A program made the translations under genes and the position numbers. Below, piece by piece: positions 26,377-31,653 of a stretch of 64,000 nucleotides of DNA (position 1 is the first letter of the stretch; every line of letters starts with the position of its first letter). The stretch comes from Naegleria gruberi (Eukaryota): assembly GCA_000004985.1 (NCBI GenBank), contig GG738890.1. The stretch is one strand, 5' to 3'. A model generated the notes under the pieces. That model ran no database searches and was not told the DNA's origin. It was given only the letters and a program-made list of their open reading frames with translations.

Positions 26377-29300
26377 ATGGAGGAGAAGAAGGTGATTAAC
26401 AGTATTACCATTTCATCTTCGGACGCCAGCAATGAAGAGTTTCTAGATTATAAAAACCCTCATGAATCCAATTCGGTAGGAGGACATAACGAGAGTGGTA
26501 ACAATGTAAGAAATACTAATAATACTGTGGGAGCACCATCACACATTGGTGGTGGCTCATCAACAATATCATCGGGTCAACAATCATCAGCTCTCACTGG
26601 TAATAACAAATTTATAACTCTGAGAGAAACCCTATTTCAATTCCTAATATCACTTAATGTTAAAACGCCTAAGGTTAATTCCAAAAGAGGTGCCTTTATT
26701 AATTTTCTCTTATACTCATACCTATTGTATATAACTGTGATTATTTCTTCGAGCCCTAGCTTGATATCACAAGATCCAACAACCTCTACATCATCATCAT
26801 TGAATAGTTCTAATAGTATGTTATGGGGAGGTATTCCTGGATGGATTTGGAGAGTACTCTTCTATCCAATCAATCTAGGGGCTGAACATTATCCGTATGA
26901 GGCAATTGTTTCACTCTTGGCTATATTTGTGGCCATTGAGGGAATGGCCTTATTTTTCTTCTACTTGTTCAAAGTTTTTGTAGATAGGGGAAGTAAGGTC
27001 GTGCCTAGAATGAGGATAGCGCTTAGGATATTCTCTATGGTCGTATTATTCCTTTCTCCCTTCATTGTTTGGATACACTCCATTCCTATGGCTATCTATT
27101 CTTCAAATGGGTCATTGACTCACTTTCCAACCATTCAGTACAATTCTCCAATGAACATTGCAGCTATAGTCATTGGATGTGTTGGCATAGTACTAACAAT
27201 TATTATAACACTGATAGGATCCTATATTGTTGTGGAAACAATACCTCCTTCGTTGAGATATATCTTTTTTGCTGCTGAAAGAGTTTACCCTCTCACTGCC
27301 TTATTCATTTTCAACCAATTATCAGTTTTACTCACTGTAATATGTGATGTGAATTATGTAATTGTTGGCTCCTCTTTAAAAATAGTTCTTTCACTGCTAT
27401 TGATTGGAATTTTTGCTAATCGATTGCCATTCTTTAAGAGATTTGAAAATTCAATATTGATTGGAATTTTATGTGCCCGAGTTGTTGGATCGATTGGTCC
27501 AATAGTTAGTCATTCAATATTAGTGAATAGTAGTGGTCTTTCTTCTCAATTGGTGGAGACAATTGGCGGATCTGTTACTGGAGGAACATTGGTGTTAATG
27601 ATTGGATTTTTCATTCTCTCAACAACAATATTTCAAATTTACCTTATTTTGATGACAAGAGGTGTTAAAAAATCCCTCAGAGAATTATTCAACAACAGAA
27701 AAACCTCCAAAACAGAGAGTATCAAATATTACATGAACTGTGAGGAAACACATACTTTGAAAAAGTTGCTCACCTTTATGAAATTTTCCTTAAATAGTTT
27801 TGAAGAGAAGGAAGATTCAGATTTTGAGATTTGTAACAATTTAGTTCAGAGCTGTATGAATACCAAAGTTGCAATTGATGTTGAATATTTAATCTTATCA
27901 GGAATGTACTTTGGTTTCTTTGGCGATGCTGATGCTAATTTGACGAATTCTGTGATTTCGATTGGAATAATGACGAGAGGATTGAAGCACCAACCTAACA
28001 TTATTCAAAAATTCCACATTATTCTAAGAACGAGGGAGATTGAATCCATAGCCTCTCAATCCAATGCTTTCAACCTTGAACTCAAGCAACAAATGAGCTC
28101 TCTGGATAAGAAACAAGTTCTCATCATGTATTTTCACAGAGAATTCTTCAAAGAACTCTTGAGTGATAAGCCACACATTGTCAAATTGGAAAATATTAAC
28201 AGAACTGTCACTAAAATGGTGAATGACTGTGATAATAGATATAGAAATTTGGCAGCCATGCACCGAAACAACAAGACTCTGTTAAGATCATATGCTGTAT
28301 ATTTGGAAACCTTGCGTTTTGAAAAGGAGGCAGCTCAAGAATTATATGAAGAAGCCAATACTCTCGAGGAGGAAGAAGTCAAGAGAGGAAGAAGACCCAC
28401 TCACAAAACAAGTCGTTTCTTTGTCCCTCAAAAAGGTGGTTCTAGAAATAGAGTCTTTCCAGTAACAACCACTTCAGAAATGAGAAGGGATTTCACACCC
28501 GCTAATGATGACGTTCAAGAGATGGTTATTGTCGATGAAGAGAATTGGGATTCTGTCAGTGCCATGCAAGATGAAGGAACCAAGAAGGAGATTGTCTATC
28601 GAATGGCTCTCAATTCACCAGATGACAATAAGAATTACACAATTTGGTTTGCTCTATTTTGCTTTTTCACAGTCATTGTATTCGTTACTTGTTTGGCAAC
28701 TTCATTATCAATCAATGACGAAACTTCGAAGAGAGTTTCACTTCAGGAGACAGTTTGCAGTTTGAGTTCAATACCTTCATTGATGGCTCAACAAATGAGA
28801 GCCATTCTAGCCAAGTTCAATCACGCCTCACATCCAGAGGATTTGGTTGAATTGGAAATTATCAAGTCAGTTTCTAGAAAACAAATAGAATATCTAATAT
28901 CCAAGGTACAGCTTGTGCAATATGCTTCTACATCTGGGGCTTTTATTGAACAAGTTGTCAAGACCTATACGGATCAGAGTTGGGACTATTACATTCCCAC
29001 AAAACAATTTGATGAATTGGCAGATCCATTGTATGATATTGGTAACTCATCGGTTGGTCAATTTGTAGATATGATTATTGATTCAGGAAGTGATATTATT
29101 GATGGAATGGAGGATTTAACCACTTTCAATAAGACTCTATCCAATTATCCGTTTCTTCTCATCTTCCTTAATAGAAAGCACTTGACAGAGGCATTTGATT
29201 CATTTTGTGTAACTTTTATTGAAGGATCAAAATATAGCTCCCAACAAGGAAGTATAATTTTTCACAGCGTTTGTTGTGGAGTTTTGGGACTTTACCTTGT

Positions 29301-31653
29301 ATTCACCTCTATTTATCTTTTCGTGCTGAGAACAGAACTATTACAATTACACAGAATATTCAATAAGGTTTTCACAAAGGTTCCCAAAGATGAGACTGGT
29401 AAAATTTTCCATTCATTTGATAAGAAGGTCGAAGATGAAATTAGAAAAGAGAATAGAACTATTTTCACACCGCAGGCAATGTTCTTGTCTTTCACAATTG
29501 CCACTATTGTGGTAGTGGTTATTGTAACCATTTTGGTAATTGTAGAATTCAATATCAATGCTAGATCTGCAGAGTCGACCATGTTAGCAACCAATTCTAT
29601 GAATACCGTAGTATTAAGCTCCATGGTTGTTAATTTTAACTTGTTAGAAATGATATTAGAAAGTCATTTGTATCCAATACCACAAGAAACCATCAAGAAG
29701 ATTAATATTGAACAGCTGGCTATAGCGAACTTTGCTTGGAGAGCTATTTCTGTAGGAAGTGAATCGAATAATTACAAGAGTTCCATCTATGGAGTTTATG
29801 AAGAAATTGATCAGTTATTGAAAGGCAGTTGTGTGAATGCTACAGGCTCACCTGAAAGGCTGACAAACACTACTGAAATGATGGCAGTTCTAGATTGTAT
29901 GGGAATGGAAGATTTAGTAGATATGTTTGTTTCTCATGCTACTGAATTCAATCAAGATTTTGCTGTCTCACTTAACGAACCTGAAACTGAAGTGGAAAAT
30001 TACTTTTCACATATTTATTATGTTTCGATTTATCTTTCACAAAAATTATTTGAATTTATCAAGACATTTGTTTCACATTCAAAGAATGCATCAATTGTCA
30101 TTACATATGCATCTTGCTTTGGTGGATTGGGTATTGTTTTGGTTCTATTCTACTTTTCCTATACATTCCTTCAAAACTTTTGGGATGAAAAGCATCATGC
30201 TAGAACAATGCTCAACTATGTTAAGTGGAATATTTTGGAACAGAATAGAGAGCTTAATCAATTTGTTATTTCACACGAAATTGGTGGATTTACCTATTCC
30301 ACTGTTGAAAAGATTGCAAATAAGGTAAAGAAAGGGATGAGTAGTGAAGAGGAGGAGGCAGAAGATCCAATGTCAATGACCATCTCAATTCTAAATGCAA
30401 CCACAGATGGTAGTGTTATTTGTAATCATGAAGGTGCTATTCAAGTGTTCAACAATGCAGCTGAAGATATGTTTGGATGTAGAAAGAGTCAAGTTGTTGG
30501 TCTCGATATTTCAAATCTGTTCTCTATGGAGGATCAACCAAGAGTTTTGAAATTTATTACCTTAATGAATTCATCCAGCAATGTAGGAGGAGAGGTATTG
30601 GAAATAGATTGTCAGAGAAGAAACCAGACTATTTTCCCTGCCAAAGTCACTCTATGTGTCAGCTACTATAATAAGAAACCAATTTTTTCATGTTTCATTA
30701 GAGATGTTACAATGGAAAAGAAGCAAAATGCACTGATTCAAGAAGAAAAGAAGAAGAGTGAAGAACTCTTGTTGAATATTCTTCCAAAACCAGTTGCTCA
30801 TAGATTGATGGAAGGTGAAAGAAATATTTCAGAAAAGTTTGGAGATGTTTCTGTTTTCTTTTCAGATATGGTTGGATTTACCAAATTTTCATCCCAGATG
30901 GAAGCTTCTGATTTGGTCACCATGTTAAATCAAATTGTGGAGGGATTTGATTCTCTCACTGATAGGCATGGATTGGATAAGATTAAAACCATTGGTGATG
31001 CCTTCTTTGCTGTAGGAGGTTTATATGCTTCAAAATCGAGCGACCATCCTGAGAGAGCTTTGAAATTCTCAATTGATGTTTTTGGATTTTTGAATCAATT
31101 TAATAAGAATGAAAAGAGGAATATTAATATTCGTATTGGACTTCATACCGGACCGTGTGGTAAGTAGTAACATGTTTATTCATGAATACTGAAAATTAAA
31201 GTTGGTGGAGTGATTGGTAAACTCAAATTTGCCTACGATTTGTGGGGTGATACAATCAATACTGCCTCAAGAATGGAATCTACAGGTGTCCCGGGAAGGA
31301 TTCACATGAGCAGATCAACCTATGAGCGTGTTCATGACTTGGGATTCAAGTTTGAGGAAAGAGACGAAATTATGGTAAAAGGAAAAGGCAAGATGAAAAC
31401 CTATTTACTTCACAGCAAGCACCACTTGCCAGCTTTGGAAGAATATGACATTACAGTTAGTACAGACGCTATTCCAGTGGAGAATAATGGATTGGAAGCA
31501 GCAAGATTAAATATTCCAAAAGTGAAAAGCATGTCTGGTCTCTCCCAAATATCAAACTTGGACGACTATATGGTTTCAAATAGGTCTGAAACAAGAAGTT
31601 ATGGGTCCATGAGCCAAAGAGGAAGCGCTGAAGATTTTAGTAAATATCAATAA
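26377..31653 (+). CDS. Polytopic membrane adenylyl-cyclase-like protein with about 12 predicted TM segments, a PAS domain and one class III nucleotidyl cyclase catalytic domain. The CDS is join(26377..31159, 31202..31653), about 1745 aa.
   Basis: The cyclase domain reads LLNILPKPVAHRLMEG...VFFSDMVGFT...KIKTIGDAFF...[35 protein letters not shown]...KGKGKMKTYLL. Both metal-binding Asp residues are present (FSDMV, IGDAF). The substrate-specifying Lys (KIKTIGD) and Asp (YDLWGD) indicate ATP, not the Glu/Cys pair of guanylyl cyclases. The Asn/Arg transition-state pair is in NTASR. PAS-like region: ISILNATTDGSVICNHEGAIQVFNNAAEDMFGCRKSQVVGLDISNLF. The 42-nt intron GTAAGTAG...TTAAAG restores the GPC-VGGVIG motif. 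Hydrophobic segments of 18-25 aa form one block of about 8 and a later block of about 4. Confidence 0.8.

Follow-up and report, generated by a model that had tools for sequence, protein, structure and literature searches.

The locus and its gene model

A window of 64,000 nucleotides, the whole stretch of DNA analysed here, from contig GG738890.1 of the Naegleria gruberi assembly GCA_000004985.1 carries between positions 26,377 and 31,653 a gene for a predicted membrane protein that combines 12 transmembrane (TM) helices with TPR_TmcB repeats, a PAS domain and a single class III nucleotidyl cyclase domain (Table 1). Two open reading frames (ORFs) of the ORF list make up this gene, both on the plus strand: an ATG-initiated ORF at 26377..31167 (1596 aa) and a second one at 31210..31653. 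They are joined by the removal of a short intron whose ends read gtaagt...ttaaag. Splicing produces an in-frame coding sequence of 5235 nt, that is 1744 codons and a stop codon, with no internal stop. When the intron is retained, the frame closes three codons into it, after ...HTGPCGK.

In an alignment to three Naegleria homologues (N. lovaniensis P0007, P0002 and N. fowleri P0008), the spliced junction is free of gaps, and N. lovaniensis P0007 has the very length of the spliced product, 1744 aa. The intron is thus supported by its splice consensus, by the restored frame and by homology. The gene structure with a 42-nt intron had been proposed in a sequence-only reading of this DNA and is borne out by the GT..AG ends, the frame restoration and the homologue alignment, which also places the cyclase exon in the same gene and not in a different one. 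The length of 1745 aa given in that reading is right but for one position, as the figure includes the stop codon. No second copy of the cyclase protein was found by tblastn within the 64-kb window.

The catalytic domain

The spliced sequence, and only the spliced sequence, matches the Pfam family Guanylate_cyc (PF00211) over profile positions 4-182 of 183, with an E-value of 1.5e-60 and 204.4 bits against a cutoff of 21.9. In a phmmer search of Protein Data Bank (PDB) sequences, the best matches were the mammalian adenylyl cyclases AC8, AC9 and AC5 (E about 1e-70 to 1e-65), of which both the C1 and the C2 domains were matched, followed by the homodimeric mycobacterial Cya (E about 1e-51). The three mammalian enzymes are the top-scoring solved relatives of the catalytic domain and of the helix that precedes it, C1 and C2 alike. 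They are built of 2 x 6 TM helices with two complementary, half-active domains per chain and are regulated by G proteins, whereas in the Naegleria protein a single domain holds all the residues.

The alignment with AC8 and AC9 locates these residues precisely. D1497 (FFSDMVGFT) and D1541 (TIGDAFF) are equivalent to the metal-binding Asp residues of C1, while K1537 (KIKTIGD), D1607 (YDLWGD), N1614 with R1618, and K1656 (VKGKGKM) correspond to the substrate Lys, the substrate Asp, the Asn/Arg pair and the KGKG or transition-state Lys of C2. The alignment to both C1 and C2 confirms the single class III domain with a full ATP-type residue set that had been described from the sequence: the Lys and Asp positions are not Glu and Cys, and neither metal-binding Asp is missing. 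The key catalytic residues are kept across 49 cyclase domains of the protein family described below, wherever the gene model is complete.

Since the substrate Lys and Asp, the Asn, the Arg, the KGKG Lys and the metal Asp residues all lie within one domain of one chain, the protein would work as a homodimer that has two symmetric ATP sites, as expected from the established structure and function of class III cyclases. The mycobacterial Cya or Rv1625c, a class IIIa adenylyl cyclase with 6 TM helices that functions as a homodimer (PDB 7yz9, 5o5k and 4p2f), shares with the Naegleria protein one catalytic domain with the full set, a helical cyclase transducer element (CTE) and a membrane anchor. 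It differs in being bacterial, in its 6 TM helices and in having neither TPR, nor large extracytoplasmic loops, nor PAS.

Membrane modules and topology

Four Pfam families score above their curated cutoffs in the 1744-aa protein: Guanylate_cyc, PAS_9, PAS and TPR_TmcB. Kyte-Doolittle peaks delineate 8 helices within residues 105-424 and four further ones at 756-774, 958-983, 1038-1056 and 1240-1265. Hydropathy, Pfam and the alignments agree with the layout reported earlier: 8 and then 4 TM helices, followed by a PAS domain, a coiled stretch and one class III domain. Lys and Arg residues are enriched ahead of TM1, 3, 5 and 7, with no such enrichment ahead of TM2, 4, 6 and 8. This pattern predicts a cytosolic location of the N-terminus, the TPR region, the PAS and the cyclase, and places the loops 775-957 and 1057-1239 outside.

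The TPR_TmcB repeats, absent from the sequence-only reading, lie inside a helical stretch, about 330 aa long and predicted to be cytosolic, that follows the 8 TM helices. With repeats above the cutoff after a multi-TM region, the protein's N-terminal part matches, by its sequence, the TmcB/TmcC family (PF25474). The Dictyostelium TmcB/TmcC or 'tiny macrocysts' family has the TPR_TmcB repeats in common with the Naegleria protein, where they come after the multi-TM block. The tie between the two rests solely on the Pfam TPR_TmcB profile, and no dictyostelid protein was found in a single-sequence search with the 12-TM module. In Dictyostelium, the tmcB family is stated to take part in a cyclic AMP (cAMP) pathway of sexual development (PMC8516963); a TmcB-type module physically fused to a cyclase is in keeping with this reported role in cAMP signalling. 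Literature searches on TmcB and tiny macrocysts found no description of a TmcB-cyclase fusion.

The second membrane module consists of two TM-loop-TM halves with a weak colinear similarity to each other (BLASTP E 0.001), suggesting that a sensor module was duplicated in tandem within the protein. Among four aligned homologues, each of the two loops holds exactly one invariant pair of cysteines, and a disulfide in each copy of the module is possible. From the AlphaFold2 (AF2) model of this module (mccca96c03b13; predicted local distance difference test, or pLDDT, of 64), we infer that the loops of about 183 aa, predicted to face outward, are folded as four-helix bundles, like the sensor domains of bacterial chemoreceptors and histidine kinases. 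The sensor kinases listed for the membrane modules are Adeh_2942 (10.9), HK9 (10.6) and NarQ (10.0). Identity to the bacterial bundles of Tsr, PcaY, NarQ and TorS amounts to 6-13% only, without homology at the level of sequence. The Naegleria protein further differs from them in having two bundles in tandem, in being eukaryotic and in its coupling to a cyclase, and the model is of moderate confidence.

Alternatively, the 12 helices could be a transporter or channel fused to the cyclase, cAMP synthesis then being coupled to transport or ion flux and not to the binding of a ligand by the loops. The 8-TM block is large and conserved, and TmcB-type proteins lacking a cyclase, such as the N. fowleri 'TmcB/TmcC TPR repeats domain-containing' protein, contain it as well. 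Fusions of this general kind exist in protists, among them the K+-channel cyclases of Paramecium and Plasmodium and the P4-ATPase guanylyl cyclases (the latter in PMC13466520). We nevertheless hold this alternative to be unlikely. The two membrane modules matched no transporter or channel family of Pfam even at E-values up to 10; besides TPR_TmcB, only chance-level matches appeared at that threshold, and those to TraG-D_C, Renin_r and Endo_dU were rejected as such. The module of TM9-12 resembles sensor bundles rather than a pore. The 8-TM and TPR part offers no usable structure model to the transporter reading, the AF2 model of residues 90-745 (pLDDT 52, predicted template-modelling score 0.41) being too poor for a fold search.

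The PAS domain and the signalling helix

The PAS domain is matched by two Pfam families, PAS_9 at 1344-1445 (E 2.1e-14, 54.1 bits against a cutoff of 27) and PAS at 1337-1444 (E 4.1e-10, 40.1 bits against a cutoff of 22.6). The closest solved PAS is the haem-PAS of Bradyrhizobium (B. japonicum) FixL, with an E-value of 8.9e-11, and DosP is a weaker match. This proximity to haem sensors gives some ground to a second alternative, in which the PAS domain would be the primary sensor, gating the cyclase through haem or flavin in response to O2, redox state or light, and the membrane part a mere anchor. PAS-regulated class III cyclases do exist in bacteria. This alternative is nonetheless improbable. 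The proximal haem-ligating His200 of FixL, in its F-alpha helix, aligns to V1390, and the same column is occupied by I, L, V or M in 58 of 61 family PAS domains and by Y, K and F once each, so that none of the 61 has a His there. A motif check of the protein did not find the LOV motif NCRFL(Q) with its adduct-forming Cys. The roughly 1250 conserved residues of membrane and loop regions also speak against a passive anchor.

Both the FixL/DosP-type haem reading and the LOV flavin reading of the domain were consequently rejected, the former for its missing haem-ligating His and the latter for its missing Cys motif. For the same two reasons, the gating by a redox signal that had been envisaged finds no positive support, FixL-like as the PAS may be. 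The sequence makes it more likely that the domain is a transducer, acting as a dimeric relay, or a small-molecule site, rather than a haem sensor.

Between the PAS and the catalytic domain, residues 1449-1477 give a sub-threshold Pfam match to the C-terminal helix of HNOBA, and the segment SEELLLNILPKPVAHRLMEG aligns to the helix ahead of C2 in AC8 and AC9. Judged by this alignment, the segment corresponds to the CTE of class III cyclases (described in PMC5995499).

Deposited gene models

The deposited N. gruberi 'predicted protein' P0001 is 100% identical to our translation over 1596 residues and represents the unspliced ORF. It closes with the same HTGPCGK within the intron, without the C-terminal half of the catalytic domain and thus without the substrate Asp, the Asn/Arg pair and the KGKG Lys. 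The intron call of the sequence-only reading betters this public gene model. Catalogue-based analyses would score the deposited protein as a defective cyclase, and several paralogue models are similarly truncated.

It could be argued from the public model, which closes within the intron, and from the great shortness of the intron, whose 42 nt are also divisible by three, that this intron is never removed and that the locus is a pseudogene or encodes the truncated, inactive protein of 1596 aa. We regard this as very improbable, as exon 2 carries the domain on perfectly with D1607, N1614, R1618 and K1656 all kept, its 147-codon frame stays open up to the conserved end, and the orthologue is also of 1744 aa.

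Several of the paralogue models P0016, P0019, P0023, P0026, P0105 and P0135/P0136 end at nearby but differing points of the catalytic hairpin and finish with a few non-homologous residues. In N. fowleri, a single gene is annotated as two separate proteins, one a 'PAS' and the other a 'cyclase' protein (FDP41_007427/007428). These cases suggest that the family commonly has short introns near the catalytic hairpin and that these are often mis-annotated.

Relatives in Naegleria and Willaertia

A whole-protein word-index search yielded 6 matches and was swamped by cyclase domains; it was replaced by searches with the non-cyclase part and by an exhaustive phmmer search, with residues 106-1282 as the query and 1.84 billion representatives as the database. 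The exhaustive search returned 116 proteins at E<=1e-3, of which 44 at E<=1e-30. Many of the matches are 1400-1800 aa long and aligned over the whole 12-TM module, and many shorter ones are fragments or split models. In more than 40 of the retrieved sequences, local phmmer finds both PAS and cyclase domains, in matching relative positions. A profile search with a 26-sequence alignment of the N-terminal module found the query's own entry only and did not extend the family.

All named relatives come from N. gruberi, N. fowleri, N. lovaniensis or Willaertia magna. N. gruberi has at least seven members (NAEGRDRAFT_81665, 72081, 73350, 69917, 60042, 73946 and the present gene) and N. fowleri at least nine loci, for example FDP41_007173 (P0008); C9374_012071 (P0007) is an example from N. 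lovaniensis. Full-length colinear similarity over the 12-TM module, the PAS and the cyclase unites these proteins with ours in one heterolobosean TmcB-PAS-cyclase family. They have the same order of 8 TM helices, TmcB TPR, 4 TM helices with two large loops, PAS, CTE and one cyclase domain. Identities over the full length are 25-50%. The proteins are separate paralogues, and for several of them the deposited model breaks off or is split close to the catalytic hairpin. The best non-heterolobosean matches cover the catalytic domain alone, 12-13% of the query.

The sequence-only reading had set the protein against the dictyostelid cyclases ACA, ACG, ACR, GCA and sGC, a contrast that does not apply to a gene of N. 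gruberi. No clear orthologue of ACA, ACG, ACR or GCA appeared, as had been anticipated, the comparison itself being irrelevant; neither orthology nor a shared architecture links the gene to a dictyostelid genome. That it is a new dictyostelid adenylyl cyclase, a sixth architecture beside those five, has next to no probability even though its architecture indeed differs from theirs and its catalytic residue set is complete, given the 100% identity to an N. gruberi entry, the exclusively Naegleria and Willaertia origin of the named relatives (dictyostelids provide 0 of the 116 matches) and the window G+C content of about 34% (0.29-0.37).

The genus Naegleria is already known for its cyclases. 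The N. gruberi genome paper of Fritz-Laylin in 2010 reportedly counted more than 100, many with PAS domains. At least 81 cyclases have been reported for Naegleria (PMC9928731) and 80 for N. fowleri, 62 of them expressed and with varied TM topologies (PMC9283941, where PAS is among the domains drawn in the figure of signalling components), and N. gruberi has 50-80 PAS proteins (bioRxiv 10.1101/2023.04.23.537977). In such a very large and varied repertoire, one more PAS-linked membrane cyclase is to be expected. UniRef names the relatives 'Adenylate and Guanylate cyclase catalytic domain containing protein'. To call the protein an unrecognised source of cAMP was therefore an overstatement: a large cyclase set is reported for Naegleria, the architecture is shared by seven or more genes of N. 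gruberi and nine or more of N. fowleri, and databases already label the relatives as cyclase-domain proteins. Literature searches found no paper describing the defined architecture, with its TmcB-like 8 TM helices and TPR, two loop modules, PAS, CTE and cyclase.

Neighbouring genes

Other genes of the window are included in Table 1. About 5 kb upstream of the cyclase lies a hybrid histidine kinase, which probably extends over two ORFs across a short intron or frame break. The gene immediately upstream encodes a Rab-type small GTPase, Rab7-like by eye, that an intron splits over at least two ORFs. On the other side, an EF-hand ORF converges on the cyclase gene, and with no more than about 80 bp between their stop codons, the 3' ends of the two are tightly packed or overlapping. 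The alpha-actinin-like, patatin-like and UDP-glycosyltransferase genes are ordinary eukaryotic genes, consistent with a segment of a Naegleria chromosome.

Table 1. Features of the cyclase gene and other genes of the window
Feature	Position	Strand	Remarks
Exon 1	26377..31159	+	Start codon to first base of codon 1595; translation colinear with Naegleria homologues
N-terminal block, 8 predicted TM helices (aa 105-424)	26689..27648	+	Hydropathy, K/R pattern, family conservation; N-terminus predicted cytosolic
TPR_TmcB repeats (aa 568-669)	28078..28383	+	Pfam PF25474, E 5.7e-14, 52.6 bits against a cutoff of 27
Second membrane module (aa 756-1265)	28642..30171	+	Hydropathy, AF2 model; TM9, loop 1, TM10, 54-aa cytosolic loop, TM11, loop 2, TM12
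Predicted extracellular helical-bundle domain 1 (aa 775-957)	28699..29247	+	Invariant C794/C944; two NxS/T sites
Predicted extracellular helical-bundle domain 2 (aa 1057-1239)	29545..30093	+	Invariant C1152/C1174; three NxS/T sites
Cytosolic PAS domain (aa 1337-1445)	30385..30711	+	Pfam PAS_9 and PAS; FixL-like sequence, Val1390 at haem-His position
Signalling helix, CTE-like segment (aa 1449-1481, ...SEELLLNILPKPVAHRLMEG)	30721..30819	+	HNOBA, AC8/AC9 alignment
Class III nucleotidyl cyclase catalytic domain (aa 1486-1665)	30832..31413	+	Pfam PF00211; interrupted by the intron
Intron, 42 nt, GT..AG	31160..31201	+	gtaagtagtaac...aaaattaaag; in-frame stop when retained
Exon 2	31202..31653	+	C-terminal half of cyclase domain, unconserved tail, stop codon 31651..31653
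Patatin-like phospholipase	8083..10782	+	
ORF, 1185 aa	10865..14422	-	No Pfam match at E 1e-5
Hybrid histidine kinase	18500..21571	+	ORF 19895..21571 with HATPase_c and response-regulator receiver domain; probably extends from ORF 18500..19867
Rab-type small GTPase	24778..25416	+	
EF-hand ORF, 507 aa	31733..33256	-	
Single uninterrupted ORF, 3321 aa	34171..44136	-	No Pfam match at E 1e-5
Alpha-actinin-like protein	49601..51769	-	CH, spectrin, EF hands
ORF, 769 aa	54226..56535	-	No Pfam match at E 1e-5
UDP-glycosyltransferase	59375..61255	-	

Interpretation and significance

Taken as a whole, the locus is very probably a two-exon N. gruberi gene encoding a membrane-bound class III adenylyl cyclase of the receptor type, probably homodimeric, and a paralogue of a family so far encountered only in Naegleria and Willaertia (Heterolobosea). 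By its sequence, the chain runs from a predicted cytosolic N-terminus through the 8-TM block, a cytosolic TPR of the TmcB type and two TM-loop-TM modules to the PAS, the signalling helix or CTE and one catalytic domain. This one domain has the metal Asp pair, the Lys and Asp characteristic of ATP-using enzymes, the Asn/Arg pair and also the transition-state Lys, so that a pair of chains could build two active sites arranged symmetrically, in the manner of the mycobacterial Cya/Rv1625c. A ligand or surface cue would be sensed by the outward loops or by the 8-TM block and would shift the TM helices; the dimeric PAS, with the coiled helix or CTE, would relay this shift to the catalytic dimer and change the output of cAMP.

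A more ambitious proposal, possible in our view but rather doubtful, is that the family represents lineage-specific eukaryotic chemosensory receptor cyclases. Its tandem extracellular four-helix bundles, of the bacterial chemoreceptor type, would serve as ligand-binding sites and directly drive the synthesis of cAMP via PAS and CTE, and the 8-TM/TPR module of the TmcB type would link them to the cAMP-dependent developmental pathway of Dictyostelium tmcB. If true, the 7-10 or so paralogues per Naegleria genome would be a ligand-diversified repertoire of receptors that bypasses G proteins.

The original reading of the sequence was accurate, and its claim to novelty rested on the wrong organism; with N. 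gruberi as the source rather than a slime mould, the chief ground for excitement falls away. Class III adenylyl cyclases that are membrane-anchored, PAS-linked and homodimeric are a kind of protein already known, and the gene is one of several paralogues in a large cyclase expansion that is already catalogued and uncharacterised. The architecture of the family may still deserve attention as a possible repertoire of receptor cyclases. Its members are concrete candidates for turning external cues into cAMP in amoeboflagellates, including the pathogen N. fowleri.

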